Assembly: GCA_963422205.2 (NCBI GenBank)
Contig: CAXMWX010000005.1
Span: 1-64,000, forward strand
Reading direction: 5' to 3'
DNA: 64,000 nucleotides
From: Gammaproteobacteria bacterium
Lineage (GTDB): Bacteria > Pseudomonadota > Gammaproteobacteria > Eutrophobiales > Eutrophobiaceae
How positions within the stretch are numbered: the first letter of the stretch is position 1; each line of letters begins with the position of its first letter. Under the pieces are notes generated by a model. That model worked only from the letters and a program-made list of their open reading frames with translations, did no database searches and had not been told where the DNA came from. Both the position numbers and the translations under genes were made by a program. Below are positions 35,385 to 56,106 of this stretch, in pieces.

Positions 35385-35732
35385 CTAGCCAGAGGCACTC
35401 AGAATCTCATCCAGCTCGGATTTCGCCGCTATCATGGTCTGGTTGATTTTTTCAATCTGCTCCGGGAGGCGGTCTAGCTCCCACCGGGCCTTGCTGTTTT
35501 TTTCAATCCGCAGCAGGTCTTGTTCAAGACAGGTCAATCCTGCATAAAAAATAATTGGCCTCAGCTTGTGAACCAGCCTGGATAACGCATCCCAATCCTT
35601 ATCTGCCACAGCCTCGCTCAACTCTGTGGTTGCCCTGTCAATGCGGCTGCTGCCCATACTGACCAACTCCACCAGCATCTCATCATCACCGCAGCTGTTT
35701 GCTTTGAGTTTCTCTCTATCAATTAATGCCAT
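35385..35732 (-). CDS. Stand-alone Hpt phosphotransfer domain protein
   Basis: GDDEML.ELV...LVHKLRP helical bundle with the conserved His. Confidence 0.7.
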   Translation of the reverse strand: MALIDREKLKANSCGDDEMLVELVSMGSSRIDRATTELSEAVADKDWDALSRLVHKLRPIIFYAGLTCLEQDLLRIEKNSKARWELDRLPEQIEKINQTMIAAKSELDEILSASG

Positions 35733-35740
35733 GGTATCCT

Positions 35741-36130
35741 CTACTGCAATACAGCATGCAGTTTTTTCAACAACGCATCTCGGGTAAACGGTTTCAACAA
35801 CACATCGTCAATACCTGCGGAAATTAATTCTGCCCGTTCCAGCGCATCGGCGGTCAAGGCGATGACCGGCATGTCGCGCTTCGGGCGGGTAAAATCCTGT
35901 CTCAGTCGGCTTACCAACTCATAACCATCCATGATCGGCATGTTCAGATCGGTGAGCAGCAGATGCACATCGTTTGCCTGTAGCACATCAAGCGCCTGCT
36001 GACCATTATTCGCGGTAAAGAGGGTAAATTCGGCGATCTTTTGCAGACATTTCCGGGCAATAAAAATGTGCATGTCCTCATCATCAACAATCAATAACGA
36101 TTTGTGAGCAAACTGAACCTGCTGTTGCAT
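35741..36130 (-). CDS. Single-domain response regulator
   Basis: LIVDD, LTDLNMPIMDG, IALTA and LLKP motifs. Confidence 0.92.
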   Translation of the reverse strand: MQQQVQFAHKSLLIVDDEDMHIFIARKCLQKIAEFTLFTANNGQQALDVLQANDVHLLLTDLNMPIMDGYELVSRLRQDFTRPKRDMPVIALTADALERAELISAGIDDVLLKPFTRDALLKKLHAVLQ

Positions 36131-36339
36131 AACTATCTGCCTGTACCGATCATAGCGACATGACGACCATGCCCTTTGTCTGTAAAGCTCTATGAACGCA
36201 ATTATACATCAAGCGCCCGTCAGGTTAAGCACGGCTTGCCGGTTACAGGCAACATGACAATGCCACAGAGCGACTTGCCCCGTGCGGTGTTCTCCTGAAC
36301 GTTGGGCGGGTTTATCGTAGCAGGGATGATACCGCTTGG

Positions 36340-37632: not shown

Positions 37633-37660
37633 GGTGCAGCTATCGCGCTATCTGATGAGT

Positions 37661-38140
37661 CTATTCTGTCAGCAATGAATTAAAAATTTTTTGTAAATCA
37701 ACAATCGGGGTTGGTCCGTGCTCGGGGTGCTGAAAACAGGATGCAGCAATCAGTGGCCAATCATCCCATCCAGCCGGGTAATCACAACATGAACCATCGG
37801 TGACAGTCGCCCGATAGGGCAATGCACTTAACACGAGCGCACCATAGCCCACCTTATCGGCATACGCTGCACTGTGATAAGCAACGATGCAGATAAAATA
37901 ACGCGGCAGGGATTGCACCTGGCGGGCAGACTCAGCTGAACAGATCACATTATAGATATCAAAAACCGGCACAACTCGGCCATGCCATAGCAAAATACGG
38001 TGACAGTAGGCCGGCGTGTGAGGTACTCGATGCAGCTTGATCCATTCGGTGATTATGTGCAGCATGTCGAACTCACCGATAGCAACATGCACTGATTCAG
38101 CTATCGGCAACACCCAAGCATTGGTCACTGTCTTACCCAT
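37661..38140 (-). CDS. CheW-like protein (divergent)
   Basis: VPHTPAYC..ILLWHGRVVPVFD; downstream of the CheA hybrid. Confidence 0.75.
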   Translation of the reverse strand: MGKTVTNAWVLPIAESVHVAIGEFDMLHIITEWIKLHRVPHTPAYCHRILLWHGRVVPVFDIYNVICSAESARQVQSLPRYFICIVAYHSAAYADKVGYGALVLSALPYRATVTDGSCCDYPAGWDDWPLIAASCFQHPEHGPTPIVDLQKIFNSLLTE

Positions 38141-38146
38141 ACATCA

Positions 38147-38632: not shown

Positions 38633-38641
38633 TATCGTTGA

Positions 38642-41566
38642 CTACGGCGAACAGATGGATTGAATTTTCTCCATCAGCTCATCTTCAGAATAAGGCTTGA
38701 TCAGATACGCATCAACACCCGCCGTCATGGCCTCCTGCTGATGCCGGGCGGCGGCCCTGGAAGTAATCATGATGCAGGGGATATCCGAGATACTGCCATC
38801 AGCACGTATATGTCCTATCAGCTCCAGCCCGGTCATCCTCGGCATTTCCAAATCAGACAGCACGATATCCGGCTTGCTGACTTTTATTATCTTGAACGCT
38901 TCCACCCCATCACGCGCCATACGCACAGTGTAACCGGCATCTTGCATAAACTGCGCCAGCGAACGTCTGGCACTGAGCGAGTCATCCACGATAAGCGCCG
39001 AGGGTAAATTCGAACGGGGTGCTTCGGTTCTTTGATATCTGCTTGCCGCCTTCCCCGCCGTGGTCGTAACCCGCACCAGTTCAGGTAAATCAACCACCGG
39101 GGTAACACTGCCATCCCCTAAAATCGTCACTCCTGACACACCGGTCAACCTCGGCACGTAATGGCCCAGATCCTTAACAACCAGGTCCTGACCGCCGATT
39201 ATCTTCTCCACCATGACGGCATGCCTGCCCTGCTCATTCTCTACCAGCAAAACCGAGCGCGATTCCCGGTCTTCGCTGCGGCGCTCAAAAACCATATTAA
39301 TCATATTTTCAAATTGATGTGCCGGGTAGCTATGCTCACCCAGCTGAAACACCTGCTTGCCGCCATAATCCAGCAGCCGCCCGGATTGATGATGGATGAT
39401 CTGCACGATACCGCGATTGGCAATGGCCACAAGCTGCGGCCCGGCCCTGATCAGCAACACATAGGAAGAGACCAGCGTCTGCGGCAGCTTGATCTCCACA
39501 GTACACCCCTTGCCGGTGTCTGATTCAACGATAAAACTCCCCGACATCTGCACGATGGCGGCATAAACCGCATCCATTCCGATACCCCGGCCGGATATCT
39601 GGGTTATTTTTGCACTGGTGGAAAAATCCGAACGTAAAATCAGTTGCTTCAATTCATCGTCTGAGATCTCATCCTGCGGCTGGTAGATCCCCTGTTCCAT
39701 CGCCTTGCGTTTGATTGCTGCATAATCCAGGCCCTTGCCGTCATCCTGACAACGCACCAGGATCTGATTGCCCTCGCGCATAAACGTCAGATAAATATCA
39801 CCTGTGGCCGGTTTGCCGGCGGCCAGGCGCACAGCACGCTCCTCAATGCCATGATCTATCGCATTGCGTAACAAGTGCATCAATGGATCAAGCAGATTAT
39901 TCAATGTGTTGGTATCTATCAGCGTATCGCCGCCATGCAGATGCAGCCTCACCGCTTTGCCTGTGATCCTGCTGGCCTGCCGGACACTGCGCTGCAAGCG
40001 GGCAAACTGTGAACTCACCGGCACCATCCTGGCGCGCATCACCCCTTCCTGGGTTTCATTATTCAAACGCGCCTGCTCCAGCAACATCTCATCCAGACGC
40101 AACAGATTCTCCGATACGGTTTTCGCCTCTTCATTCGCATCAACCGCGGCTTCAACCAGCCGTCGGCAACACGTATGTAATTCGCTGTACAGATCCATCT
40201 CCAGGCTGTCATAATCACTGTCCAGCGTACCCGCCCGTTGCAGGCCGGTTAAATCCTTGACATCAACAATCTCTTCCAACTGACTGCCTAACTGCCGGAT
40301 CAGCGCAAACTGCCCCTGCATGTTTTTAATCTGTGTTCGGGTGACGTGCACCCGGTCACGCACCTGCCCGGTCATGATGATGGTCTCGCCCACCAGTCTT
40401 AATAAATTATCAACAAACCCGGCCGGAACCCGCATCATGAAACTGCCGGATTCACGCATGTTAATCCCTGGCTTGCCGGTCTCAACAGCACCAGGCTCGC
40501 CCGATTGTCTTCCCTCGGCATCTGACAGTGCTGGCTCTTCTGCCCGGGCCGGCATGAGATCGGCCACCTGTATGCCCTCCTGTTCAATCAGGTTGACCAA
40601 ATCCAGCACCTCCTGCAAAGTCTCACGGGCATCTTGCGGCGGCCTGCCTGTCCCCAGCAGGGTTTCACTCATCGCTGCCAGACAATCAGCGGCATTCATC
40701 AAGGTCTCGGAGATGCGTACTGATGGCAGCCGCTTGTGCTTGCTTAATATAAGCAGCAGGTCTTCCAAGTGGTGGGTCAGGGTGGCGATACCACGCACTC
40801 CCACCGTATTGGCGGCACCCTTTAATGTGTGGGCAACACGCTTTGCGATCTGCACATCCTCAAGAGTACCGCCATCAGTCAGACGACTGATCGCCGCCGA
40901 AAACTCCTCGGTCTGCCCCGGCAACTCTGCTAACAAACCATCGAGTAAATCCTGACTGACATCATCTTGCAGTTGCAGGGAAACATCGGCAGCACGTGCA
41001 CTCCTCTGCCGCTCTGCCATGATCTTTTCAGGCACCGTAAAACCGGATTTAAGGAGCGTGTTTTTCAGCACCCTGGCCTGCTCTGCGGATAATGGCATCG
41101 GCCAGGCACTGTCCTGCATAAAGGACAACAAGCGATTCGTTGCCGCTTCATTCGCTGGATTGCTCAGGCAGGCCAGCAGGGTTTGTGGCCATCTGCCAAG
41201 CAGGGCGAGGGTATTTCCCAGTGCTTCTGGCTGATCCTCTGCCATTGCAAGATCGGCAAGGGTTGAGAGATTGGCCCGGGCAGTATCAACCACCTCGGCC
41301 AGGGCGGTAAAACCAAGGCTGCTCAAGGCATCGGAGTAACGCTGCATTTGTGTGGTTAGACCCGGCACCAGCAACAAGGCGGCATCAATCTCGGCAATGG
41401 CTAATTGCTGTATTGCCTCATGGATGACCCGCAATTCGGCTGCCATGATCTGCACGGCCTCCCGGATCGAGTCCGGCAATTCATCGCTGATCGCCACCTC
41501 AAGTGCAGGCGATGGGGGGGTGCCTTTATCCAGCAGATCATCGGCTTGCTCATCAGAAATCATCAC
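38642..41566 (-). CDS. Hybrid CheA/ChpA-like kinase (Hpt-HATPase-CheW-REC)
   Basis: AHTLKGAA, HLLRNAIDHGIE, DDGKG, SGRGIGMD, GVTILGDG and C-terminal IVDDS...SDLEMPRM motifs. Confidence 0.93.
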   Translation of the reverse strand: MMISDEQADDLLDKGTPPSPALEVAISDELPDSIREAVQIMAAELRVIHEAIQQLAIAEIDAALLLVPGLTTQMQRYSDALSSLGFTALAEVVDTARANLSTLADLAMAEDQPEALGNTLALLGRWPQTLLACLSNPANEAATNRLLSFMQDSAWPMPLSAEQARVLKNTLLKSGFTVPEKIMAERQRSARAADVSLQLQDDVSQDLLDGLLAELPGQTEEFSAAISRLTDGGTLEDVQIAKRVAHTLKGAANTVGVRGIATLTHHLEDLLLILSKHKRLPSVRISETLMNAADCLAAMSETLLGTGRPPQDARETLQEVLDLVNLIEQEGIQVADLMPARAEEPALSDAEGRQSGEPGAVETGKPGINMRESGSFMMRVPAGFVDNLLRLVGETIIMTGQVRDRVHVTRTQIKNMQGQFALIRQLGSQLEEIVDVKDLTGLQRAGTLDSDYDSLEMDLYSELHTCCRRLVEAAVDANEEAKTVSENLLRLDEMLLEQARLNNETQEGVMRARMVPVSSQFARLQRSVRQASRITGKAVRLHLHGGDTLIDTNTLNNLLDPLMHLLRNAIDHGIEERAVRLAAGKPATGDIYLTFMREGNQILVRCQDDGKGLDYAAIKRKAMEQGIYQPQDEISDDELKQLILRSDFSTSAKITQISGRGIGMDAVYAAIVQMSGSFIVESDTGKGCTVEIKLPQTLVSSYVLLIRAGPQLVAIANRGIVQIIHHQSGRLLDYGGKQVFQLGEHSYPAHQFENMINMVFERRSEDRESRSVLLVENEQGRHAVMVEKIIGGQDLVVKDLGHYVPRLTGVSGVTILGDGSVTPVVDLPELVRVTTTAGKAASRYQRTEAPRSNLPSALIVDDSLSARRSLAQFMQDAGYTVRMARDGVEAFKIIKVSKPDIVLSDLEMPRMTGLELIGHIRADGSISDIPCIMITSRAAARHQQEAMTAGVDAYLIKPYSEDELMEKIQSICSP

Positions 41567-41621
41567 GGCGGCACACGTCAGCCGTTGCAGTTATACGGCC
41601 TGGCGGGCAGCATGAGCCGTA

Positions 41622-43043: not shown

Positions 43044-43058
43044 GGGCTTAACCCCCCG

Positions 43059-43595
43059 TTAGTCAGTGAAACTGCTGAATACTTCCTGAAACAGCCCGTC
43101 AAAATCCACATCCAGCCATATATCCTCTGCATGTAGAAAAGCGGTTTTTGTGTGGTTCTGCAAAATATCAGCCAATGGTGGCAGGGCATCGACTGGCCTG
43201 CTGGCATCCACGACAACCGGCAGATCATCAATGCTGATACCGACACTTTTGCTGCCCTCACCAATCATCAACACCCAGCGGCCAGGCTGATCAGCACCGG
43301 TATCGAGCAGCATATCCATGTTGATCACCGGTATGAGATTGCCGCGCACATTAATCATGCCCCGAAACCATAACGGCGTATTGGGTATCGGACAGGGGCC
43401 AGGGGCATCAATGACTTCAGATTTTTCACCGCCTGCCAGCAACAAGCCCATCGTCCCGACCATAAATCCATAGCGTGATGTTTCAACCTCTTCAGCCCGG
43501 TAGACATCCAGTTTATCCGGGCGGGCGGTGAAACGGGTCAACGCCTCGCTCGGTAACAGCAGACCATCGGGCAGGTTATCGTTACGCTGTGACAT
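43059..43595 (-). CDS. CheW/PilI-like adaptor
   Basis: IPNTPLWFRGMINVRGNLIPV motif. Confidence 0.88.
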   Translation of the reverse strand: MSQRNDNLPDGLLLPSEALTRFTARPDKLDVYRAEEVETSRYGFMVGTMGLLLAGGEKSEVIDAPGPCPIPNTPLWFRGMINVRGNLIPVINMDMLLDTGADQPGRWVLMIGEGSKSVGISIDDLPVVVDASRPVDALPPLADILQNHTKTAFLHAEDIWLDVDFDGLFQEVFSSFTD

Positions 43596-43678
43596 CGTTA
43601 TTGATGGCTATGGCAGGCAACACCGATCAGCAGTTAATACCGGTCTGTTGCCAGGAACAATGTGCCGGGGCACATGGA

Positions 43679-44485
43679 TTATTCAATATCAAGATACTCA
43701 CTGATGACCTCTTTGAAGATCCCCGGATTAACCGGCTTGATCATATAGGTATCACACCCTGCCAGTTTGCCTTTCACCTTATCGGCTGGCGATGAATTAC
43801 TGGTCAGCATAATCACCGGGGTCTCGGCCTTGTTTGGATCCTGCTTGATCATCTTGCAGATGTCATAGCCATCAACCCCCGGCAGCACCACGTCCAGAAA
43901 CACAATATCATAACGATTACCTTTTATAAGGGCTTCTGCCTCCTCACCGCTTTCCGCAAAATCTATTTTGCTGGCGATGCTCTGTAGTGCTTTTTTCATC
44001 TGAATGCGAACTGGCAGACTGTCATCAACGACCAGCGCGCTGATGGCATTGCCAGCCGCCTGGGTGCCATCGCCCTGCCCGTCTGTTGCACTGCCTGACT
44101 CACCCTCAAAGATCGAGGGCACAGCATAGCCATGCTCATCGATCACCGTCTCTTCCAGCAAGGACAGCAGGCGGGTGGCGACCAGGGGCTTGGCGGTATA
44201 ATGGTTGGTGTCATTCGGATTGGCCGGCGGGATCGACTCACATAGCATGATGGTGGAGATGACATTGCCCTCGCCATAGCGTTTAAGGTAAGCACCCCAG
44301 CGGCGCACGGCATCCGGGTTGTCTGCATCAACAATCAGGATGTCGGCATATTTCCTGCCCGACAGGGCTTCAAACAGATCAAAGGATGGCGTACGATTTT
44401 TAGCCAGTGCCATCGCCGTGGACAAGATGTTTTGATCATGTGTTTTAAACCCAATGGATGCAACGGCAAATATCGTCTCACTCAT
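43679..44485 (-). CDS. Response regulator (degenerate N-terminal REC-like domain plus PilG-like C-terminal REC)
   Basis: LVVDDS, FLDVVLPGVDGY, IMLTS and GKLAGCDTYMIKP motifs. Confidence 0.88.
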   Translation of the reverse strand: MSETIFAVASIGFKTHDQNILSTAMALAKNRTPSFDLFEALSGRKYADILIVDADNPDAVRRWGAYLKRYGEGNVISTIMLCESIPPANPNDTNHYTAKPLVATRLLSLLEETVIDEHGYAVPSIFEGESGSATDGQGDGTQAAGNAISALVVDDSLPVRIQMKKALQSIASKIDFAESGEEAEALIKGNRYDIVFLDVVLPGVDGYDICKMIKQDPNKAETPVIMLTSNSSPADKVKGKLAGCDTYMIKPVNPGIFKEVISEYLDIE

Positions 44486-46302: not shown

Positions 46303-46397
46303 GGCAATACTCTGCTCATCTCACCGTCATGCAAGAGACAACATCCTCTGCATATAGCTGGCGACTGACCGGCACGCCCGGGCTGACAAGCCGCAAA

Positions 46398-46958
46398 TTA
46401 AAATAATTCCACATCGCCTTTATCCAGGGATTGTTGTTTTACCGGATTACTTAATTGCATGGCATGGCTGACTGCCGCTATATCGGCCCGACATTTTTTT
46501 AACACCGACATTATCTCGGCACTGTCCTGCCCTGTCGATTGATACAAGACCTCCACCTGCTCATGAATAGCGACAAACATTTTTTCTATTTCACCGACAC
46601 GTAAACAGGCATGGTTAATCAGTTGCTGCAAGATATCCTCAAACTGCAAGGCGCGCACGGCATTGCCGACAGATGAGCTGATCTCATTGGTGGTCAATAA
46701 CAGGTGTTCTATGTCACTCTCATCCTCATGCTGTTGCACCTGCACGGCGCACTTTCGCAACTCGGCGCTTTGTTGTGCCAACTGGTAACTCATGGTACCG
46801 AAACATGCACGCAGATCACCTGCCGCCTCCCGCAACATCTTGCTCATGCGTTCAAGATCACTCCCCATGACCTGCTGTTCACGAATGACAATATGGCAGA
46901 CATCATCAGACAGGGCATGCAGTGACTGCATTAATTGGTTATGTCCGTTTTCACTCAT
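46398..46958 (-). CDS. Short cytoplasmic chemotaxis protein (MCP-tail/CheZ-like helical bundle)
   Basis: AVRALQFEDI..Q...H motif and C-terminal NPVKQQSLDKGDVELF. Confidence 0.65.
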   Translation of the reverse strand: MSENGHNQLMQSLHALSDDVCHIVIREQQVMGSDLERMSKMLREAAGDLRACFGTMSYQLAQQSAELRKCAVQVQQHEDESDIEHLLLTTNEISSSVGNAVRALQFEDILQQLINHACLRVGEIEKMFVAIHEQVEVLYQSTGQDSAEIMSVLKKCRADIAAVSHAMQLSNPVKQQSLDKGDVELF

Positions 46959-47177: not shown

Positions 47178-48299
47178 TCAGCTTAACTTGCCCAGCTCTA
47201 TCAGATGCGGTGCAATGGCCGGCAAGCCCAGCACCAGGCTGGCCGCTTCCAGCCTCACGGCCTCCCCCGGCATCCCCCAAACCACACTGGTAGCCTCATC
47301 CTGGGCAATGGTTGTTGCCCCGGATTCAAGCATCTCTTTCAGGCCGCGCGCGCCATCGGCTCCCATGCCGGTGAGGATAACGCCGATGGCATTGGTCGCT
47401 GCGCTTTCAGCGACCGAGCGAAACAAGACATCCACCGAGGGTTTATGCCGGTTCACCGGCGGGCCGTCATGTAATTGACAGCGATAACGGGTACCATCCC
47501 AAACTAACAGCAGGTGTTTATTCCCCGGGGCGAGATAGGCATGGCCGGGCATGACCGGCTCGCCATCCGTTGCCTCAGATACCGTGACCTGACACAGGCT
47601 GTTCAAACGTTCAGCGAATGAGGTGCTGAAGACCGGCGGGATATGCTGGCTGATCAAGATGCCCGGGCTGTCAAGTGGCATTTGCAGCAGAATCTCTCTA
47701 ATCGCCTCGGTGCCGCCGGTTGAGGCGCCCATGGCAATAATTCTCTCCGTGGTGTTAAATTTTCTGACATTGGCCGGTCGCTGTAACACCGCGGTGGCAG
47801 AATACTTGACATCTATCTCATCCGTGCCTGTGCCAGCACCTGGCTCTGGCGGCGCTGGCTTGTCCTCTGCCATGAGGTGCCTCGGCCTGACCTTCGCCTG
47901 TGCCGCATTCTTGACCTTGGCAATGATCTCCTCTGAATAATTGATCAGATCGTTGGCAACATCCACTTTGGGCTTGCCGATAAAATCGATCGCCCCCAAG
48001 GATAATGCCTCTAATGTCACTTCAGCGCCTTTTTCAGTCAGGGAAGAGACCATGACAACAGGCAGCGGGCGCAAACGCATCAGCTTACGCAGGAAACTCA
48101 TCCCATCCATCTTGGGCATTTCCACATCCAGGGTAACGACATCAGGATTAAGCTCTTTTATCTTGCGTCTGGCAATCAGGGGATTCATGGCCGAGCCCAC
48201 CACCTCAATCGCCGGGTCGGATGAGAGCACCCGGGTCAGGATACGTCTGACTAACGCTGAATCATCAATAATAAGTACACGAATCCTGTTCATGGGCAT
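47178..48299 (-). CDS. cheB: Chemotaxis response regulator protein-glutamate methylesterase
   Basis: REC domain plus [19 protein letters not shown] and LTGMGADG motifs. Confidence 0.96.
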
Positions 48300-48307
48300 G
48301 GCTGAGG

Positions 48308-48979
48308 TTATGGCGTGAATATATCGACTTCGCCACTGAGCTGCTGGTTTTCCAGCTTGCGAATATAGGCCCGCTCCCGTTCAATCAGTGTGTTGTTATG
48401 CACTTTGTAGAAATGCTTTACCCTGACCCTGCCGGAGCTGGGATAATAATTTATTTTTCTCGGCCAGATCCCGCCCACATCAGCGCTGATCACCTGATAC
48501 CCTTCCTTGGCGATAAAATCCCTGACGAAATCAATATTCATCTGGCCGATGTTGGTATTAATATCCAGCACTTTTGCCCCGCCAAACAGTTTGATTTCGA
48601 AATTTTTCCGGCTGCCGCCACAGGCCAGAATGGCGTTGATTAATCTCTCCATCGCCACATTGCCATAACGTGTGCCGAGACTGACAGGCGTATTGGTCCA
48701 CTCATCCTGCCTGTAATCACGCAACACGGGCAGCATAAAATGATTCATCCCGCCGATACGGCTGATCTTGTCACGGATACAGGCGGTCACACACGACCCC
48801 AGCACCGTGCTGATCATCTCTCCCTGGCTGGTGACATAATACTGGCCTGGTGTGATCTTGGCGGAATAAATATGATTTTTTGCATCCCAGAACCGATGGA
48901 TATGCTCAAAGCCCGGCAAAACAGACGGCAGGTTGCCATCGTCAATGCCATGGTCATGGATATCATCGCTGGCGCCCAT
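48308..48979 (-). CDS. cheD: Chemoreceptor glutamine deamidase
   Basis: [27 protein letters not shown] and KLFGG motifs. Confidence 0.95.
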
Positions 48980-49827
48980 CAGCTTATCTTCCGATGTATG
49001 GTGTTGCCAAGAGACCGGAAACGCTCAGAGACACCAAACAGGCTCTCGGAGTGGCCAATAAACAAATGCCCGTCTTTGATCAGCAGATCATGGAAACGGG
49101 CGATGAGATTCTGCCGCATCTCCCGTTCAAAATAGATCACCACATTACGACAGAAGATGATGTCGAACGGCCCGCGCATAGGCCAGGCAGTATCGGCAAG
49201 GTTCAGACGTTTGAAGTGAATCATCGCCTTGATCTCATCGGCCACAGTCACCAGCCCATCGTTCCTGCCACGGCCTTTGCGGAACCAGCGTCTGTGCTGG
49301 GACAGCGAAGAGTCATCGAGTTTTTCGGTGGTGTACACACCGGCCCTGGCCTGCTTGAGAATGCCGGAATCCAGATCAGTCGCCAGGATTTTTATATCCC
49401 AGTCCCCGGTAAACAGGCGGCTCTGCTTAATCGTCATGGCGATTGAATACGGCTCTTCACCGGAAGAACAACCGGCAGACCAGACCCGTATGCGCTTGTT
49501 GTTCTGCTCTGTTTTATGCTTGAGGATTTCGGGTAAGGCACTGTTTAACAAATACTCAAAATGATGATTTTCACGGAAAAACGCCGTGACGTTAGTCGTC
49601 AGGGCATTGATACACTGCACCAGCTCCTCATCATTGTCCTGCTGTAACAGGCGACAATATTGCTCGAATGAATCAAGCTCCAGATGCCGCAGCCGCTTGG
49701 CCAGCCGCCCATAGATCAACTCACGCTTGGAGACCGGCAGGTGGATACCCACGCGTTCAAGCATCAGATTGCTGATGAACCGGTAATTCTCATCAGTAAA
49801 CGTGAACCTCTGCATTGGCCCAACCAT
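48979..49827 (-). CDS. cheR: Chemotaxis protein methyltransferase
   Basis: TTNVTAFFRE, VWSAGCSSGEEPYS, IFCRNVVIYF and IGHSE motifs. Confidence 0.96.
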   Translation of the reverse strand: MVGPMQRFTFTDENYRFISNLMLERVGIHLPVSKRELIYGRLAKRLRHLELDSFEQYCRLLQQDNDEELVQCINALTTNVTAFFRENHHFEYLLNSALPEILKHKTEQNNKRIRVWSAGCSSGEEPYSIAMTIKQSRLFTGDWDIKILATDLDSGILKQARAGVYTTEKLDDSSLSQHRRWFRKGRGRNDGLVTVADEIKAMIHFKRLNLADTAWPMRGPFDIIFCRNVVIYFEREMRQNLIARFHDLLIKDGHLFIGHSESLFGVSERFRSLGNTIHRKIS

Positions 49828-49866
49828 GACCTTAGCCAGGGGCCAGGAACGATAATGTTGTCAGGC

Positions 49867-50331
49867 TCATACCGGCAGGCCCAGGGGCTCAGTCAGCCCC
49901 AGTAACGCCGCCGTATCGGTGAAGGCTTGTGAGGGTTGCAACAGCGTGCAATCCCGGTTTTGTGCCTGTCGCTGGCGGATGAAGGCCAGCAATAACTGCA
50001 AACCGGCGGTATCAATCATCTGCACACCGCCAGCATCAATGCAAACCGTCGCCTGTTGATCACCATGTACCATGAGCGTCTCTTTCAAAGCCGCCACATC
50101 AGCGATGGTGATGACTGTGGCCAGCGAGATGGTTATCGTCTCATCTGCCATCGTGCTGCCATCAGACGGGGCAGCCTGTGTCTTCTGCCCCTGTGTCTTC
50201 TGTTTTGAACTGGCGACTTTTTTGCCGGTTTTTTTCCTCGTTCGGGGGCGGGTTGCCGGCCTGGCCGCATCGGCGCTGCCAGCCGCCGCATTCGAGCGCT
50301 GGATGCGGCCGGTCTTTTTTTTCGCTGTCAT
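49867..50331 (-). CDS. STAS domain protein with a basic disordered N-terminus
   Basis: IDAGGVQMIDTAGLQLL...AALLGL motif. Confidence 0.85.
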   Translation of the reverse strand: MTAKKKTGRIQRSNAAAGSADAARPATRPRTRKKTGKKVASSKQKTQGQKTQAAPSDGSTMADETITISLATVITIADVAALKETLMVHGDQQATVCIDAGGVQMIDTAGLQLLLAFIRQRQAQNRDCTLLQPSQAFTDTAALLGLTEPLGLPV

Positions 50332-50367
50332 GTCGTGCTTATCTCAGCCTGTTGCGGCGGGCAGGAT

Positions 50368-50877
50368 CTAAGGACTGCTCGGCAACTCTGCCAGCAAACC
50401 GGCATTGACCAGGGCATCGATCTCCAGCAGGATGATCATCTTCTCATCGATGGTTGTCAGTCCCCGGATAAACTCCACATTGATGGCGCCTCCTATATCA
50501 GGCGTCTCGCTGATCGCATCCCCGACCACGTTGTATACCTCAGAGACCGCATCCGCCACCATGCCGACTGTACGCAGATGCCCTTCGTTTTCTATCTTGA
50601 CCACGATGATCACGGTCGTGGTATGAAATTCCGCCTGTTCCAGCTGAAACCGGCGGCGCAAGTCCATCACCGGCACGATCGTGCCGCGCAGATTGACAAC
50701 GCCCAGCACATAATCCGGCGTGTTCGGGATGGTGGTGACCGGCTCCCAGCTGCGTATTTCCTGCACCTTGAGGATGTCAATACCGTACTCTTCCGCCCCC
50801 AGCTTAAAGGTCAGGAACTGGCTGGTGCCGGCCTGCTGCTCGGCTGATAACATATCGGTTGGTGATATCTCGGTCAT
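50368..50877 (-). CDS. cheW: Chemotaxis adaptor CheW
   Basis: QFLTF.LG.EEYGIDILKVQEI and GVVNLRG.IVPVMDLR motifs. Confidence 0.96.
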   Translation of the reverse strand: MTEISPTDMLSAEQQAGTSQFLTFKLGAEEYGIDILKVQEIRSWEPVTTIPNTPDYVLGVVNLRGTIVPVMDLRRRFQLEQAEFHTTTVIIVVKIENEGHLRTVGMVADAVSEVYNVVGDAISETPDIGGAINVEFIRGLTTIDEKMIILLEIDALVNAGLLAELPSSP

Positions 50878-50889
50878 TGCCCCTCCTGA

Positions 50890-52905
50890 CTATGTGCTGA
50901 TCTCGGCCGCTGCGCTGGGGGTATTGGCCGATTCGTTTTCTGCTAACCAAAATTCAAGCAGGCCAGGCAAATCGATGATCATCGCCACGGTACCATCCCC
51001 CAGGATAGTCGCCCCGGCCAGGCTTTCAATCTGACGAAAATTCGTACGCAGGCTTTTAATCACAACCTGCTGCTGGCCTAATATGTCATCCACCAGCAGG
51101 CCGATGCGCCGCCCGGCATCCATGATGACCAGCAAGCCGTCGTCCAGTGCGGTATTGGCACCTTGAACACCGAAGACCTCATGCAGGCGAATGACCGGGA
51201 TATACCCATCCCGGTAGCGATATACCTCATATTTGCCCGCCACAGCGCTCACCAGGCTACTGTCAATCTGGGTGGATTCGATGATCGATAACAGCGAGAT
51301 GACAAAAATATCCTCACCCACCCGGATCAGCTGACCATCCATGATGGCCAGCGTCAGCGGCAAATATAGGCTGAACGTGGTGCCGATGCCTTTTTGCGAT
51401 GCCACTTTGACATTACCGCCCAGCTCCACGATGTTGCTTCTGACCACATCGGCGCCCACACCCCGCCCGGATACGCCACTGATCTCGTTCGCCGTGGAGA
51501 AGCCGGGCAGGAAGATCAGGTTGTGAATCTGGCTTTCCGTCAACTCATCGCTGACGTTAATCAGGTCTTTCTCAATCGCCTTTCTCCGGATCGCCTCCGG
51601 GTCAATACCGGCCCCATCATCACGGATCTGTACCACGATATTGCCGCCCTCATGATAGGACTCCAGCGCAATCACGCCGACCTTCTCCTTCCCCGCCGCT
51701 TCACGTTCAGCCGGGGTTTCAATGCCATGATCCAGCGCATTGCGAATCAAATGCACCAGCGGGTCGCCGATCTTCTCCAGTACGGTCTTGTCAATTTCGG
51801 TGGCGTTGCCCGACAGTTTGAGCTCGACCTGTTTGCCCAGCGAGCGGCTCAAATCATGCACCAGCCTCGGCAGGCGCTGAAAGACAAAGTCAATCGGCAA
51901 CATCCTGATGTTTAAGGTTTGCTCCTGCAAATCACGGGTATTACGCTCCAGCTGTTCCACGCTTTGCTTGAGTTTTTCCCGATCAACAGGGCGGCGATTC
52001 GTACTGGCAAACCGGCTCAGCATGGAGACCGTGATCACCAACTCACCCACCAGATTGACCAGATTATCGACTTTCTCCGTGTTCACCCGGATAGAGTTGC
52101 TTTCCTGGCCGGGGAGCTGTCCGCCCGAAGCCGCACTGGTCGGGAGCTGCATATCATCCGCCCGGCGGCCACCGGTACGACCCCCGGCACGACGATCAGC
52201 ATGCTGCCTGCGCTCGCCGCCCAGCTCGATATGCAGCTCACAATCCTCATCCACCCATTCAAACATCTCTTCGATATCGCCCCTCGCAACATCGGCAGAG
52301 AACTGGATATGCCAGCTAAGGTAACACAACTCCGGGTCCATGCCTTGCAGCGGCGGCAGCCGGTCAAGCTGTCCGCTGATCTGCATCTCGCCCAACTCGG
52401 CCAACTCACGAAACAAACGATAGGGATCGTTGCCCGTTTTTAGAAAATAATCATGGGGATGGAAATAAATATGCCAGCTGGGGGTTGGCTGTTGTGTGGC
52501 CTCGCTTTGGGTGGCTGCTGGCAGTGCAATCAGCTTCTGCCTGATCCCGGCCACCTTGTCTTTGTCAATGTCCTGGCCGGATTTCGACTGGGCAATCATG
52601 TAGCGAAGGCAATCCACAGACTCCAGCACGGCATCCACCATCAGCCGGGTCAGCGCCCGCTTTTGCTCCCGCACCTCATCAAAACAGGTCTCAACCACGT
52701 GGGTAAAATCGGCGATGTCGCTGAAACCAAAGGTGCCGGCACCGCCTTTGATCGAATGTGCCGCACGAAACACCGTATTGATCACCTCCGGTTCGGGACG
52801 GGCAATGTCGAGACTCAGCAGATTGGCCTCCATCACTTCCAGGTTTTCTATGCTCTCCTCAAAGAAAATGTCATGGAACTGCGACATATTCAGGTCTAGC
52901 GCCAT
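50890..52905 (-). CDS. cheA: Chemotaxis histidine kinase CheA
   Basis: FRAAHSIKGGA, SIRV..EKVD.LVNLVGELVI, HLIRNALDHG, SGRGVG and GATILGDG motifs. Confidence 0.97.
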   Translation of the reverse strand: MALDLNMSQFHDIFFEESIENLEVMEANLLSLDIARPEPEVINTVFRAAHSIKGGAGTFGFSDIADFTHVVETCFDEVREQKRALTRLMVDAVLESVDCLRYMIAQSKSGQDIDKDKVAGIRQKLIALPAATQSEATQQPTPSWHIYFHPHDYFLKTGNDPYRLFRELAELGEMQISGQLDRLPPLQGMDPELCYLSWHIQFSADVARGDIEEMFEWVDEDCELHIELGGERRQHADRRAGGRTGGRRADDMQLPTSAASGGQLPGQESNSIRVNTEKVDNLVNLVGELVITVSMLSRFASTNRRPVDREKLKQSVEQLERNTRDLQEQTLNIRMLPIDFVFQRLPRLVHDLSRSLGKQVELKLSGNATEIDKTVLEKIGDPLVHLIRNALDHGIETPAEREAAGKEKVGVIALESYHEGGNIVVQIRDDGAGIDPEAIRRKAIEKDLINVSDELTESQIHNLIFLPGFSTANEISGVSGRGVGADVVRSNIVELGGNVKVASQKGIGTTFSLYLPLTLAIMDGQLIRVGEDIFVISLLSIIESTQIDSSLVSAVAGKYEVYRYRDGYIPVIRLHEVFGVQGANTALDDGLLVIMDAGRRIGLLVDDILGQQQVVIKSLRTNFRQIESLAGATILGDGTVAMIIDLPGLLEFWLAENESANTPSAAAEIST

Positions 52906-52967
52906 GGCCTTAAATCCCCCGATTCCGCCGCATGCGTTATACCATCAACCGTGGCTGCCTGCTGACA

Positions 52968-53345
52968 TCACAAAACCCGTCGTATGGTCTTGAGCAAGGT
53001 ATCCGGATCGAAGGGTTTGACAATCCAGCCAGTCGCACCGGCCGCCTTACCCTGCTGCTTCTTGTCATCGGCAGATTCTGTGGTCAGAGTCAAGATAGGC
53101 GTGAACCGGTAGTTCGACAGCTGTCTGAGCTCTTTGATAAGCGTGATCCCGTCCATATTCGGCATGTTGATGTCTGTCACCACCAGGGCAACATCATTGT
53201 CCTGGGCAAATGCCAGGGCATCCACCCCATCCATACTTTCATGCACCTCATAATGGGCGGCTTTCAAGGTGAAACTGACCATCTCTCTCATGGAAGCCGA
53301 ATCATCGACCAGCAGGATCCGTGTCGGTTTGGGTGTCTCTGTCAT
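52968..53345 (-). CDS. cheY: Chemotaxis response regulator CheY
   Basis: VDDSASMR, TDINMPNMDG, LTTES and GATGWIVKPF motifs. Confidence 0.93.
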   Translation of the reverse strand: MTETPKPTRILLVDDSASMREMVSFTLKAAHYEVHESMDGVDALAFAQDNDVALVVTDINMPNMDGITLIKELRQLSNYRFTPILTLTTESADDKKQQGKAAGATGWIVKPFDPDTLLKTIRRVL

Positions 53346-53708
53346 TATTAATTTTTTATCTGAAAGGTTTCTTAACTTTAATCAATAACCTGGCTTTCGT
53401 CCACAGTAAAACGGCGGCATAAAATCACTGCCTGAAGTTGGTAAATGACTCAAAATATTGCCTTTAAGCCATGAAATACTAAAGTATTATCGACAAGCAT
53501 GTTGCCGCAGTATTACAATAACATCATAAGGTATGGTCGCAGATAACCCTGTGGGTAGTGATGAGCTGTCTGGCACAGCCCGTTATTGACAGTACAATAA
53601 ACGCAATAAATGCTATATTTTACAGATATTTATACGAATCCCAAAGAATGCAGTGCGCCCGCATCAGCGGCTTTGCGTTTCTTAACGGTAAATTAGAGAA
53701 GTCAATCA

Positions 53709-54086
53709 ATGCCAAAGACCGTGTTAGTGGTGGATGATTCGAAATCAGTCCGTGCTGTGATAGGCGCCACATTAAAAATGGCCGGCTATAATCTGATATT
53801 AGCCGAAGATGGCCTGCAAGCGATGGATTTGCTGTCCTCACCAGAGACCCCCCCGATCGATCTGATCATTACCGATGTCAACATGCCCAACATGGATGGC
53901 CTGACCTTAATCAAGGAGGTGAAAAAACTGGCCGGGTACTTCAAAACCCCGATTTGTGTGCTCACCACCGAAACCGAGCAAAGCAAACTGCAACAGGATA
54001 TTGGTCATCTGAACGATGCCTGGATCACCAAGCCGGTGCAACCTGCCCATGTGTTAAACGTGGTCGGCGAGTTGTTGTCGAGCTGA
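53709..54086 (+). CDS. CheY-like single-domain response regulator (divergently transcribed paralogue)
   Basis: VVDDSKSVR, TDVNMPNMDG, LTTE and WITKP motifs. Confidence 0.9.
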   Translation: MPKTVLVVDDSKSVRAVIGATLKMAGYNLILAEDGLQAMDLLSSPETPPIDLIITDVNMPNMDGLTLIKEVKKLAGYFKTPICVLTTETEQSKLQQDIGHLNDAWITKPVQPAHVLNVVGELLSS

Positions 54087-54135
54087 ACTGCTACGACAAG
54101 CCTGGCTGTAACATCCACCGAGCCGACATAGAAAA

Positions 54136-56106
54136 ATGGCAGCAGCAGAACAGCAAGCATCTGAGGTGAATTGCCAATCCATACTGGCTATAGATGATGA
54201 TCCTGACTTCATCACCCTGCTGAAAATTATCTTTCAGAAGCTCACCCCGGGCGCCAGATTCTACAGCTATGATCCAGAGAAAAAAGGACGGCCGGACAGC
54301 AATTTCAACTGGTCGAAATATGATCTGATCCTGCTCGATTATGACCTGGGCGATGGCGAGAAAGGGTTGGACTGGCTGCGGCGTTACAAAACCTCGGAAG
54401 AATTCCCCACCACCGTCATGCTGACCGCCCAGGGGGATGAGGAAATTGCCGTCCAGGCGATGCGTTTTGGGCTGGAAGATTACATCAACAAACAGAAGCT
54501 CTCGTTTGACCGGCTCTCCCAGGCGGTCAAAAACGCCATGGCGAGAAAACAAAAGCAAAAAAAGCTCGCCAATACGTTAAGCATGCAGGCCAGCCTGTTT
54601 GACAAGGCCAGCTTTTATAAAAAGCTGCGTGATGAGCTGAAGACCCTTGATGAGGATCAGGACAAGCATGCGTTTATTTTGCAGATCAGCATTGATGATT
54701 ATGACGGGCTGTATGAAAAACACGGCATCCTCGCCATAGACAACCTGTGTTCCAATATGGCCGGCAAGATTGCCAAGGCCCTCACCAGCAGCAAATTTGT
54801 CGTCAATATCACCCGTCTGGATGATTCTCTCATTGGCTGCCTCATCACCGAACATGCGGATGAGAATGGGGGGGAGAGAATTGGTCGGGCGATTTGCAAG
54901 CTGATAGATAACTACGCCTACACCATAAAAGATGCGAAGCTGACTTCAACGGTCAGCATCGGCATCATGAATATCAGCCGCTCGACAGCGAAACCGGATA
55001 CCCTGCTCAATCAGGTGAACAAAGCCTGTCAGAAGGCGGGCAAGAAGGCGGGAAACAGCATCGTGCTGATCAGGCAGGCCGGGAAGAAGGCCGAGACAGC
55101 ACAAGCCGCCGTCAAAACAGATCACGCTGCTGCCAGAACAAATATTGTGATACTGGATTTGGATGAGGGCGTATCCGCACAGGCGCTGGATACCGCACAG
55201 AAAAGTACGCCCCAGGAACAGCCGGCCGGGCAGGCAGCCGATAAACCGGCAAGCAAACGCAGGCCAGCGGCTAAAAAAACTGCCCGTAAAGAGACAACGA
55301 CAGCAAAGCCGCCGGCACCGGATGAGGCGGATGAGGCGATGGCAGCAGAAGCGCCAAAATATGATCTCCATGCCGCCGTTGGGCAGAATCGCATACAAAC
55401 CTACTACCAGCCATTTGTCGCCCTGTCAGAAAGTGCCAATATGTTTGATGCGGAATTTTTTCAATTAACGATCAATATTGTCGATCCTGACGGTGCACTC
55501 ATCAGCCAGCAAGCCATGATGGAGAGAGAGATTGAACCCGGTGGATTAGTCCTGCTTGATCGCTGGATGATCAGGCACGGTCTCGGCCAGTTAATGCTGA
55601 ATAAAAAAGAAAATGAGCAGGAATGCGGCCTGTTTATGCGGCTCTCGGCGGACTCCTTTACCAACAATGATTTGTTTGACTGGATGGTGAAGCTGATTGT
55701 CAGAACCAAAACCTCCAGCATCACGTCCAAGATGGTGTTTGAAATCAGCCCGCCTGAATTTCTGTCCAATAAAAAAATCATGCAGGACTTTATCAACAAG
55801 ATGCGCGATACCTGGGGCATTGCGTTTTCATTATATGATGTCGTCAATCCGGCGGTGCTGGAGACCTGCGTTAAGCAAGCGGGTTTTGAATTTGCAAAAG
55901 TCAACTTAAACAAGGCATCGGTGGATGATATCAGGCCGGTGGTGGAATCGGCCCGCAGACTCGGCACCTTGACCGTGATTGAAAACATCCAGGATGCCGA
56001 ACAATTAAACCAGTCGGTGGTCATCGGTTGCGACTATGCCCATGGCGATTTTATCCAGCCACGACAAGATGCCCTCATCTCCTCTAACGATGCCATAGAG
56101 CTTTAA
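54136..56106 (+). CDS. REC-GGDEF-EAL protein with degenerate catalytic motifs (FimX-like)
   Basis: REC LLDYDLG; the GGDEF position reads RLDDSLI; YYQP is followed by FFQLT instead of EAL; C-terminal DYAHGDFI. Confidence 0.82.
   Translation: MAAAEQQASEVNCQSILAIDDDPDFITLLKIIFQKLTPGARFYSYDPEKKGRPDSNFNWSKYDLILLDYDLGDGEKGLDWLRRYKTSEEFPTTVMLTAQGDEEIAVQAMRFGLEDYINKQKLSFDRLSQAVKNAMARKQKQKKLANTLSMQASLFDKASFYKKLRDELKTLDEDQDKHAFILQISIDDYDGLYEKHGILAIDNLCSNMAGKIAKALTSSKFVVNITRLDDSLIGCLITEHADENGGERIGRAICKLIDNYAYTIKDAKLTSTVSIGIMNISRSTAKPDTLLNQVNKACQKAGKKAGNSIVLIRQAGKKAETAQAAVKTDHAAARTNIVILDLDEGVSAQALDTAQKSTPQEQPAGQAADKPASKRRPAAKKTARKETTTAKPPAPDEADEAMAAEAPKYDLHAAVGQNRIQTYYQPFVALSESANMFDAEFFQLTINIVDPDGALISQQAMMEREIEPGGLVLLDRWMIRHGLGQLMLNKKENEQECGLFMRLSADSFTNNDLFDWMVKLIVRTKTSSITSKMVFEISPPEFLSNKKIMQDFINKMRDTWGIAFSLYDVVNPAVLETCVKQAGFEFAKVNLNKASVDDIRPVVESARRLGTLTVIENIQDAEQLNQSVVIGCDYAHGDFIQPRQDALISSNDAIEL

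Follow-up and report, generated by a model that had tools for sequence, protein, structure and literature searches.

Receiver-bearing Hanks-type kinases as candidate outputs of two chemosensory operons in a gammaproteobacterium lacking flagellar markers

A chemosensory cluster with two receiver-kinases

The window analysed here is a stretch of 64,000 nucleotides (positions 1 to 64,000 of contig CAXMWX010000005.1, assembly GCA_963422205.2, Gammaproteobacteria bacterium; genome label G000), in which the cluster runs from 35,385 to 56,106 (Table 1). All 20 of its 20 ORFs are open, and the gene positions given in an earlier note on this DNA were borne out by Pfam throughout. That note described a Pil-Chp-like operon flanked by two kinases; whilst the positions hold, we find two systems with one kinase apiece, STK2 belonging to the F7-like operon.

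Table 1. Features of the chemosensory cluster, with coordinates in the window
Feature	Coordinates	Strand	Basis or remark
Probable stand-alone Hpt, small helical protein, 115 aa, invariant H55-K-x-R-P	35385..35732	-	Weak matches and context
Stand-alone receiver, 129 aa	35741..36130	-	Pfam REC E 2.6e-24
STK1: REC + Hanks-type Ser/Thr kinase, 430 aa	36340..37632	-	Pfam REC and Pkinase
CheW-like protein a, 159 aa	37661..38140	-	Pfam CheW E 2e-4 (weak); hhalign vs CheW alignment: probability 95%, E 2.3e-8
Divergent, possibly CheW-like protein b, 161 aa	38147..38632	-	hhalign probability 25%, colinear over 139 columns
Hybrid CheA, 974 aa: Hpt, dimerisation, HATPase_c, CheW, C-terminal REC	38642..41566	-	Pfam
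MCP, 473 aa	41622..43043	-	Pfam MCPsignal E 2.8e-35
CheW, 178 aa, PilI position	43059..43595	-	Pfam CheW E 1.1e-11
Tandem pseudo-receiver + receiver regulator, 268 aa, PilG position	43679..44485	-	Pfam REC at 151-258; 145-aa N-terminal extension
STK2: REC + ~130-aa basic low-complexity linker + Hanks-type kinase, 534 aa	44698..46302	-	Pfam REC and Pkinase
unk186, helical protein, ends in KGDVELF	46398..46958	-	C-terminal ~100 aa homologous to relatives' MCP
F7-like che operon overall	47178..53345	-	
CheB, F7-like operon	47178..48299	-	450 bits
CheD, F7-like operon	48308..48979	-	
CheR, F7-like operon	48979..49827	-	263 bits
STAS, 154 aa, Thr108 at SpoIIAA-type phospho-site	49867..50331	-	F7-like operon
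CheW, F7-like operon	50368..50877	-	
CheA (CheA2), 671 aa, F7-like operon	50890..52905	-	
CheY, F7-like operon	52968..53345	-	
REC2, single-domain receiver, 125 aa	53709..54086	+	Pfam REC E 4.6e-21
REC-GGDEF-EAL protein, 656 aa	54136..56106	+	Pfam

Gaps of just 6-83 bp separate the genes from 44485 to 36340. Their order is similar to that of Pil-Chp operons, and to this extent the Pil-Chp-like label stands; the hybrid CheA, however, is not a canonical ChpA. In the CheA tree it falls in a 'short ChpA-like' class that a single split separates from canonical ChpA, F7-like and flagellar CheAs (SH-aLRT 99), and we rejected a canonical identity, with 29 'short' CheAs and 6 canonical ChpAs on opposite sides of branches supported at 99 and 96. 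The window protein carries a C-terminal receiver and one Hpt domain by Pfam, with P2 not detected, and its counterparts in relatives (1137-1420 aa) have N-terminal regions without domain assignment. Pfam found no PilH-like CheY, PilK or ChpB in the window, and the canonical order pilG-pilH-pilI-pilJ-pilK-chpA-chpB-chpC does not describe the window operon; at relatives' loci of this CheA class a PilH-like gene is present, and PilK and ChpB are absent. Canonical operons with PilH-like CheY, PilK and ChpB genes exist separately, at five of six canonical loci, the sixth (G190) having its MCP, CheA and a small downstream ORF alone matched by the queries used.

The smaller proteins of this operon differ in how readily they are recognised. 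By eye, the N-terminal part of the MCP shows two hydrophobic segments separated by a short loop. The response regulator of the earlier note is more exactly a tandem pseudo-receiver and receiver: its AF2 model (pLDDT 86.7) has a beta-alpha N-domain, and Foldseek aligns it over ~275-285 columns to the tandem-receiver chains 3luf, 3mf4, 2v0n and 2ayx. Where two CheW genes had been read after the CheA, protein a is CheW-like, but protein b has no Pfam match and a weak profile match; it is kept beside protein a in G024, G247, G256 and G189. The proposed stand-alone Hpt is weakly matched in sequence (Pfam Hpt E 1.4e-3, below the cut-off; weak NCBIfam matches to LetS, BarA and TorS in their Hpt ends; no match to CheA P1 by hhalign), but its gene context makes it a probable one, with orthologues following a hybrid HK-REC in G024, G403 and G256. 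The adjacent small receiver is homologous to the C-terminal REC of relatives' 883-886-aa PAS-HisKA-HATPase-REC hybrid kinase (47-48% identity to the REC of L079:14031-16682 and L117:9539-12199), the catalytic part of which is absent from the window.

The second operon is provisionally labelled F7-like for its gene content (CheD, STAS) and its orthology to operons bearing CrsR and CrsA. CheA2 groups in the CheA tree with the CheAs of two such operons, in G002 and G015. The F7 class has an operon-encoded soluble receptor (Aer2/McpB-type; PMC9855816), and Pfam found none of the genes from 47178 to 53345 to be an MCP. In G002 and G015, which are flagellated, an MCP, a CrsA-like STAS and a CrsR-like REC-SpoIIE-HATPase_c_2 protein stand where the window operon has unk186 and STK2. 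unk186 has no family match of its own in Pfam or NCBIfam; over its C-terminal ~100 aa it is homologous to the C-terminal end of the MCP (429-434 aa) encoded after CheB in these two genomes (BLASTP E 3e-9 to 1e-5). A CrsR/CrsA-type switch (REC, PP2C (SpoIIE) and HATPase_c_2, with a small STAS partner) was not found in the window by Pfam; the sole SpoIIE match in G000 is a PP2C-FGE protein, and no REC-gated SpoIIE protein occurs among the SpoIIE matches examined in the genomes that share the cluster.

On the opposite strand, the receiver of the REC-GGDEF-EAL protein is of the same unusual subfamily as those of the kinases, and is the best match of STK1 residues 4-128 among the genome's non-kinase receivers (38% identity, E 3.4e-25); this shared subtype fits a common phosphate donor. 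The GGDEF domain matches weakly (41 bits), inspection by eye shows no GG[DE]EF where it is expected, and both the GGDEF and the EAL signature motifs look degenerate when judged by eye. A Wsp-type output, meaning CheY-GGDEF with an active GGDEF motif, was considered for this protein and set aside.

The window holds no flagellar genes, as had been reported, and FHIPEP and FliG_C were likewise not found in the whole 98%-complete genome. As FliG_C is also found in none (0/5) of the genomes sharing the cluster, there is no flagellar motor for either CheA to drive. PilB/PilT-type ATPases are encoded elsewhere in G000, outside the window. The same genome encodes an FHA-bearing Tad pilus ATPase and an FHA-adenylate cyclase.

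Intact kinases and their recurrence beside CheA

Hanks kinases rely on a catalytic set comprising the VAIK Lys, the alphaC Glu, HRDxKxxN, the DFG Asp and APE/SPE, and receivers on a phospho-switch set of an acidic pair, an acceptor Asp, a Thr/Ser and a Lys. STK1 and STK2 score 171.3 and 170.6 bits against Pkinase PF00069 (gathering cut-off 31.7) and 48.8 and 48.7 bits against the receiver family PF00072 (cut-off 30.2). In a 30-sequence alignment, the acceptor Asp D56 and Lys K108 of the receiver are invariant, as are Lys K201, the alphaC Glu E220, HRDxKPxN (292-299), DxG (312-314) and S-P-E (339-341) of the kinase, which upholds what had been read of these motifs from the two genes; D8, D9 and T86 are nearly invariant, and kept in both STK1 and STK2. 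A degenerate glycine-rich loop is restricted to the STK1 clade, in which the remaining catalytic residues are kept. The kinase domain matches Stk1-type PDB chains (145 bits, E 3e-41), and none of the best 60 PDB matches holds a receiver and a kinase in one solved chain.

Synteny of the receiver-kinases with che genes, on which the earlier note had staked its reading, is found in relatives. Of the 31 other loci read whose hybrid CheA is of this class, 16 hold a kinase gene of this family, usually as the last gene: 9 of 11 among family-level relatives, 8 of those 9 downstream of CheA, and 7 of 20 further loci in the class-wide sample. The remaining 15 of the 31 lack it, and the kinase is therefore an optional module; one subclade of nine in the CheA tree has it downstream in eight, and the canonical Pil-Chp loci have it in none (0/6). 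In the kinase tree, the ChpA-linked kinases form a single clade (99/96) whose branching partly matches the CheA tree, for example in placing G008 with G012. The STK1 clade is supported at 100/100, as is the STK2 clade, which is sister to the ChpA-downstream kinases (99/97).

Five genomes, drawn from two families, have the full supercluster, at 36-78% protein identity. REC2 orthologues (68-70% identity) lie within it in G024, G007, G403 and G256, and in these same four STK2 comes after the F7-like operon and unk186; in G024 it does so directly, on the same strand, across an 11-bp gap. Immediately upstream of STK2 lies unk186 in four of the five genomes, and in G007 a 547-aa MCP gene intervenes. 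At the STAS phospho-site, after a conserved Asp, the five genomes have Thr (four) or Ser (one), and both CrsR/CrsA genomes, G002 and G015, have Ala, a contrast of five genomes against two that covers few lineages. These five genomes are either kin or share the cluster by transfer, and its link to the loss of flagella may therefore reflect only one or two events.

Ser/Thr phosphorylation as a possible chemosensory output

We propose, with a probability of roughly 0.55, that STK1 and STK2 are phospho-Asp-gated outputs of the two CheAs. There appear to be two pathways, each with a receiver-gated Hanks-type kinase as its dedicated output or as one among its outputs. In pathway A (44485 to 35385, minus strand), a membrane-anchored MCP without a sizeable periplasmic domain would, together with CheW and the two CheW-like proteins, control the ChpA-like hybrid CheA. 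Phosphate would come from the Hpt of this CheA, or from the stand-alone Hpt through a relay from the CheA's own receiver, and could reach three receivers: those of the tandem-receiver regulator, the small receiver and STK1. In pathway B (the F7-like operon, 53345 to 44698), CheA2 would pass phosphate to CheY, CheB and the STK2 receiver. In both kinases we infer that phospho-Asp would release or dimerise the kinase domain, which would autophosphorylate its activation-loop threonines and then act on its targets. STK2 may act on the STAS protein of its own operon, with Thr108 as the leading candidate site, and would thereby take over the role that CrsR (a REC-PP2C-Ser-kinase) and its STAS partner CrsA play in related F7 loci.

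In one competing view, which we consider unlikely, the receiver-kinases answer as ordinary response regulators to classical or hybrid histidine kinases: a PAS hybrid kinase-Hpt relay would feed STK1, the CheAs would signal to CheY-like proteins only, and the kinases would lie near che genes because signalling genes cluster, nothing more. Indeed, in G024, G403 and G256 STK1 lies downstream of the hybrid CheA and is followed directly by the PAS-HisKA-HATPase-REC hybrid kinase, Hpt and REC2, and this hybrid kinase could be its real donor; yet the window, which lacks the catalytic part of that hybrid kinase, keeps STK1 intact. Similarly, a third paralogue of the kinase family (C9) adjoins a NarL-type regulator and a HisKA_3 kinase of the ordinary sort, an arrangement that recurs in G017, and the family is therefore not CheA-specific. 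This view could also draw on the 15 loci without a kinase, but has to contend with those of G008, G002, G004, G039 (two loci), G388, G233 and G082, where the gene following the hybrid CheA is the receiver-kinase and the stretches read showed no further histidine kinase, and with STK2, which lies within the F7-like direction of transcription at the position of CrsR.

Alternatively, the kinases could be modulators or feedback elements that act on the array itself (MCP, CheA, CheW-like proteins or the tandem regulator), with the receiver as a docking module or phosphate sink. We doubt this: wherever a receiver is present its phosphorylation residues are invariant, which is unexpected of a mere docking domain. 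Four loci (G021, G012, G174b, G189) do carry a receiver-less kinase, to which phospho-Asp gating is therefore inapplicable, and in the first three it occupies the same position after CheA, as feedback would allow. The genes downstream of CheA-linked kinases vary (S49 peptidase, TldD/PmbA, acyl-CoA synthetase, YceI), with no conserved substrate gene after the kinase in the loci read, and the candidate target STAS is itself encoded in the operon; these points would also suit feedback. Finally, a decaying remnant of motility control after the loss of flagella, with functionally unconnected kinases, is very improbable: FliG and FlhA matches are absent, a lone receiver is what is left of the hybrid kinase, unk186 resembles an MCP fragment and the GGDEF and EAL motifs look degenerate, but every ORF is open, CheB and CheR score strongly, and the same cluster is kept across the five genomes and two families.

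Returning to the two kinases as CheA outputs, the alternative-function chemosensory reading of the earlier note is supported in part: the synteny speaks for it, but there are two systems, some relatives' kinases are receiver-less, and in three relatives STK1 may be fed by a hybrid histidine kinase. Characterised chemosensory endpoints are motors, pili, transcription factors and c-di-GMP enzymes, and His-Asp and Ser/Thr systems are mostly known to meet through Ser/Thr kinases that phosphorylate response regulators. A conserved ending in a Hanks kinase, if true, would be a direct bridge from His-Asp to Ser/Thr phosphorylation; our literature search found no description of a chemosensory REC-Hanks kinase supercluster. 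Probably, chemotaxis-type sensing here drives protein phosphorylation instead of a motor, and the link to flagella loss bears on an old question, the role of "chemotaxis" genes in non-motile bacteria. The positional swap with CrsR yields a testable hypothesis, namely that STK2 phosphorylates STAS at Thr108. More tentatively, we could imagine that in these flagella-less bacteria both remaining arrays have been rewired to Ser/Thr phosphorylation, STK2 having displaced CrsR/CrsA to phosphorylate STAS, and the second REC-kinase reporting from the Pil-Chp-like array, where the FHA proteins of this genome (Tad pilus ATPase, adenylate cyclase) might serve as phospho-Thr readers; this would make an undescribed output class, from His to Asp to Ser/Thr.

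Comparison with known systems

STK1 and STK2 share their catalytic motifs with PknB/Stk1-type Hanks kinases (PDB 4eqm, 1mru); whereas those sit in the membrane as receptors whose sensor domains are of the PASTA or another type, STK1 and STK2 carry a receiver instead. In Wsp and other 'alternative cellular function' systems, which are among the classes named in PMC10542144, the chemosensory core acts on an enzymatic response regulator, not a motor. These systems end in a diguanylate cyclase (WspR) or a transcription factor, in contrast to the Ser/Thr kinase of the window, whose sole GGDEF-EAL protein is divergent and looks inactive from its sequence.

The Pil-Chp system of Pseudomonas aeruginosa comprises PilG, PilH, PilI, PilJ, PilK, ChpA, ChpB and ChpC. 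According to PMC10542144, its CheA has several Hpt domains, a C-terminal receiver and no P2; measured against that outline, the window operon is alike in its order of regulator, (CheY), CheW, MCP, hybrid CheA with C-terminal receiver and CheW-like genes, and in that P2 goes undetected, and differs in the one detectable Hpt against many, the missing PilK and ChpB, and the tandem pseudo-receiver/receiver regulator. The core of its CheA also branches separately from the canonical ChpAs of this class of bacteria, and a kinase gene is appended, as at no canonical locus. As regards the regulator, the summary in PMC13507683 presents DrdR of Xanthomonas campestris as a tandem pseudo-receiver with a functional C-terminal receiver and no output domain, which binds PilB and PilT; likened by description, the two have the same architecture, but DrdR is an orphan whereas the 268-aa regulator heads a che operon.

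The che1 (F7) locus of Shewanella oneidensis encodes CrsR and CrsA, which are tied to RpoS control, according to PMC9855816. On that account, it resembles the F7-like operon in joining che genes (CheA, CheY, CheW, CheR, CheD, CheB) to a STAS protein and, as presumed non-motor output, a protein Ser kinase gated by a receiver. The link to RpoS is a feature of che1, as is the separate CrsA-like STAS, which is absent from the window; and where CrsR, as described there, combines REC-PP2C with a GHKL-type anti-sigma Ser kinase, STK2 joins a receiver to a Hanks-type kinase, with no phosphatase domain.

Gene layout and the receiver-kinase hybrids

The two receiver-kinases of the window, STK1 and STK2, are most likely phospho-Asp-controlled outputs of its two CheAs, a reading drawn from sequence to which we would give a probability of roughly 0.55, and which rests jointly on conserved linkage, intact switch and catalytic residues, a swap at the position of CrsR (a REC-PP2C-Ser-kinase) and the lack of a flagellar target. 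ORF listing with Pfam/NCBIfam scans confirmed the gene list of an earlier note (see table), with seven tightly spaced genes (gaps of 6-83 bp) running from the regulator through STK1. That note had also placed two CheW genes after the hybrid CheA, which holds for the one next to STK1 but less surely for its neighbour, at best a very divergent CheW; its call of an Hpt is weak on sequence, with no hhalign match between the 115-aa protein and CheA P1 domains, but is supported by an invariant H-K-x-R-P motif and a position behind the hybrid kinase of relatives.

Features of the two che operons and their surroundings in the window
Feature	Coordinates	Strand	Remark
Regulator, 268 aa	43679-44485	-	first gene of Pil-Chp-like string
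CheW	43059-43595	-	
MCP, 473 aa	41622-43043	-	
Hybrid CheA, 974 aa	38642-41566	-	Hpt, HATPase_c, CheW, C-terminal receiver
Small gene, very divergent CheW at best	38147-38632	-	hhalign probability 25%
Small gene, CheW-like	37661-38140	-	hhalign probability 95%
STK1, receiver-Pkinase fusion, 430 aa	36340-37632	-	
Lone receiver, 129 aa	35741-36130	-	209-bp gap separates STK1
Helical protein, 115 aa, probable Hpt	35385-35732	-	
Complete F7-like che operon: CheY, CheA (671 aa), CheW, STAS, CheR, CheD, CheB	53345 down to 47178	-	upstream
unk186, unassigned, 186 aa	46398-46958	-	3' of che operon
STK2, receiver-linker-Pkinase fusion, 534 aa	44698-46302	-	after unk186
Single receiver	53709-54086		divergent from che operon
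REC-GGDEF-EAL protein	54136-56106		divergent from che operon

Across 30 aligned receiver-kinases (three from G000, the genome of the window, and 27 from a public protein collection), the receiver acceptor D56 and K108 are invariant, and the acidic pair and T86 nearly so. The same holds without exception for K201, E220, HRDxKPxN (292-299), D312xG, S-P-E and two threonines of the activation segment in the kinase, in line with the earlier claim that both hybrids keep the catalytic Lys, HRDxKPxN, SPE and acceptor Asp. The glycine-rich loop, GEGG, is canonical in STK2 and degenerate across the STK1 clade. The closest solved relatives are the kinase domains of Stk1, StkP, PknA and PknB; among the 60 top-ranking PDB sequences, none extends over receiver and kinase together. 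Both Pfam domains occur in all but one of the best 120 database hits, under names that are generic at most; the architecture is common among uncultured Gammaproteobacteria. A motif search with the alignment fixed on generic kinase motifs (77 loci, mostly unrelated kinases, with the receiver also covered in about six) and was replaced by genome searches.

A kinase tree of 43 rows resolved four clades: the STK2 type (100/100), sister (99/97) to kinases downstream of ChpA-like genes (99/96), the STK1 type (100/100), and a type adjoining HisKA_3 kinases and NarL regulators (100/99). A third G000 receiver-kinase, on another contig, adjoins a HisKA_3 kinase and a NarL-type regulator. Matches of ~480 aa in many relatives that seemed STK2-like have an N-terminal kinase and no receiver, and were left uncounted as a different family. 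A protein of ~470-520 aa (L092-L101, L104-L106), Pkinase at its N-terminus and unassigned in its C-terminal half, is conserved with similar neighbourhoods in 13 of the genomes examined and may be a housekeeping kinase of this family.

Within G000, the kinase receivers are closest to that of the REC-GGDEF-EAL protein (38% identity, E 3.4e-25), with which they share an unusual subtype, YDP...G.P...W..YD..LLDYDLG. In this protein, the signatures of GGDEF and EAL look degenerate by eye, with GG[DE]EF, EAL and DDFGTG apparently absent; it may therefore act without catalysis, as an adaptor or as a receptor for c-di-GMP. Elsewhere in the window, an N6_N4 DNA methylase domain is divided, one half each, between two adjoining minus-strand ORFs (33127-34635), of which the second has an Mrr-like nuclease domain too; together they look like a restriction-modification gene that has been split or frameshifted. 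The GC content at 16000-20000 is 0.40-0.41, against 0.50-0.60 in the rest, and this stretch may be a foreign island.

Linkage of receiver-kinases to a class of hybrid CheA

Searches with STK1 and the hybrid CheA began with 40 relatives and were extended to 400 genomes across the bacterial class; class-wide counts are lower bounds, since only the top 2-4 candidates were scored per genome, and the tallies take in G063 and G319 (both flagged unpublished), with no locus from either among those mapped. Another 31 loci with a CheA of the window's hybrid class were retrieved and mapped, a set outside which lie further matches in G338, G260, G046, G406, G184, G156, G123, G333, G125, G307 and G238, and that of G023, where the CheA match sits at the edge of a contig. 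Typically, the operon comprises the tandem regulator, a 121-aa CheY, CheW, an MCP and the hybrid CheA. A kinase of the STK1/STK2 family lies within the cluster at 16 of the 31 loci, so that the proposed synteny with che genes is kept in relatives; the remaining 15 have none. The receiver-kinase follows CheA directly in G008, G002, G004, G039 (two loci), G388, G233 and G082, and is separated from it by two CheW-like genes, as in the window, in G024, G403 and G256. The cluster kinase has no receiver in G021, G012, G174b and G189, and in G007 the only such kinase is STK2, upstream of the operon. Genes 3' of the kinase vary between genomes. In G397 (L128 3014-4881), an HTH-receiver and a REC-HD-GYP phosphodiesterase follow a same-class CheA, with no kinase, which shows the last operon position to be a swappable output slot.

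Perhaps the receiver-kinases answer to other histidine kinases instead, an alternative that we regard as unlikely. It concerns STK1 in particular, which a PAS hybrid kinase adjoins in three relatives; in the window, the remnant of that kinase is the lone receiver only.

In a CheA-core tree (48 rows, quick mode), a well-supported branch sets off each of four groups: 29 'short' CheAs (99), 6 canonical ChpAs (96), 7 F7-like (99) and 6 flagellar-cluster CheAs (100). Since short CheAs are split from canonical ChpAs, the earlier label of a Pil-Chp-like operon stands for gene order, but the operon belongs to a class of its own. Among the short CheAs, a subclade of nine includes eight that are followed by a kinase. 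Six genomes holding the Pil-Chp-like operon also carry a canonical ChpA locus, none with a kinase gene beside it; the canonical operon is recognisable in five of the six, always with PilI, a ~685-aa PilJ, a ChpA of 1650-2540 aa and a small gene resembling ChpC. Three of them (G274, G305, G132) have PilK and ChpB, and two (G189, G274) have both PilG and PilH, whilst only the MCP, CheA and a small downstream ORF were matched by these queries in G190.

STK2 and the end of the F7-like operon

By position, kinases lie on both sides of the Pil-Chp-like operon, as had been noted, but STK2 belongs to the F7-like operon. In G024, it starts 11 bp after unk186, on the che-operon strand and converging on the other operon, and the arrangement agrees in G007, G403 and G256. 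The orthologous operon of the flagellated G002 and G015, which groups with the window CheA2 in the CheA-core tree, ends in CheB, a soluble 429-434-aa MCP, a 97-98-aa STAS and a 571-580-aa REC-SpoIIE-HATPase_c_2. The last two correspond to the CrsA/CrsR pair described for the Shewanella oneidensis che1 (F7) locus (PMC9855816). In the five supercluster genomes, with the two che systems side by side (G000, G024, G007, G403, G256), unk186 and STK2 occupy the place of this MCP/CrsA/CrsR set.

Over its last ~100 residues, unk186 shares homology with the end of that MCP, and a CheZ-like identity suggested by the motif FEDILQQ was dropped on this ground; unk186 looks like a receptor remnant. All four unk186 orthologues aligned end in KGDVxLF, similar to the pentapeptide that forms a C-terminal tether in some chemoreceptors. 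A CrsR-like protein surviving elsewhere in the supercluster genomes was also considered. In G403, GAF-PP2C-HATPase_c_2 and dCache-HAMP-PP2C proteins account for the strong SpoIIE matches. No match is receiver-gated among those examined, which came from G000 and G403 and not from G256 (matches equal in size to those of G403), G024 or G007 (both weak).

After its conserved Asp, the operon STAS has Thr in G000, G024, G007 and G403, Ser in G256, and Ala in G002 and G015, the two in which the additional, CrsA-like STAS carries Ser; this position is the site phosphorylated in SpoIIAA and RsbV. Complex prediction pairing the STAS domain with the kinase domain of STK2 was uninformative (score 0.00). 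Similar KKTQ/QKTQ-like repeats occur in two Lys/Arg/Gln-rich low-complexity tracts, the N-terminal ~60 residues of the STAS protein (gene at 49867-50331) and the ~130-residue STK2 linker. A ParA/MinD-type ATPase adjoins the internal STAS in G002 and G015 (L132/L133); the window operon is without it.

Candidate targets and known systems

The G000 assembly (2.99 Mb, 98% complete) has only two CheA genes, both within the window, and four MCP genes. The absence of flagellar genes, reported for the window, extends to the whole genome for the markers FHIPEP and FliG_C, neither of which has a match. FliG_C is likewise missing from all five supercluster genomes (97-99% complete) and present in three of five others tested (G008, G002 and G039; not G388 or G233), a pattern rather than a statistic, as the genomes are kin and the cluster maybe moved between two families. 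PilB/PilT-type ATPases and a Tad locus are present in G000. On contig C3, a Tad/Flp locus (RcpC, secretin, TadB/C, TadE) includes an ATPase with an N-terminal FHA domain (L152:4021-5715), which, FHA being a phospho-threonine reader, is a candidate downstream partner of Ser/Thr kinases. The same contig carries in a row (L153:1189-7366) genes for a Pkinase-FGE-sulfatase (1483 aa), a phosphatase of the PP2C type and a fusion of adenylate/guanylate cyclase with FHA, possibly a second Ser/Thr module with cyclic-nucleotide control.

Could the receiver-kinases modulate the arrays themselves? We think this improbable, and favour their role as CheA outputs. A receiver-Hanks kinase as chemosensory output was not found described in full-text searches of the literature, response-regulator reviews possibly listing the architecture being outside the search; censuses of response-regulator outputs reportedly include receiver-kinase fusions as entries, uncharacterised.

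As for known systems, the predicted structure of the 268-aa regulator (pLDDT 86.7) has a receiver-like N-domain and a true receiver, and tandem-receiver structures, PleD among them, align with it over ~280 columns. Compared by layout, it matches DrdR of Xanthomonas, which binds PilB and PilT (PMC13507683). For the F7-like operon, the counterpart is the CrsA/CrsR pair of S. oneidensis, tied to RpoS control (PMC9855816).
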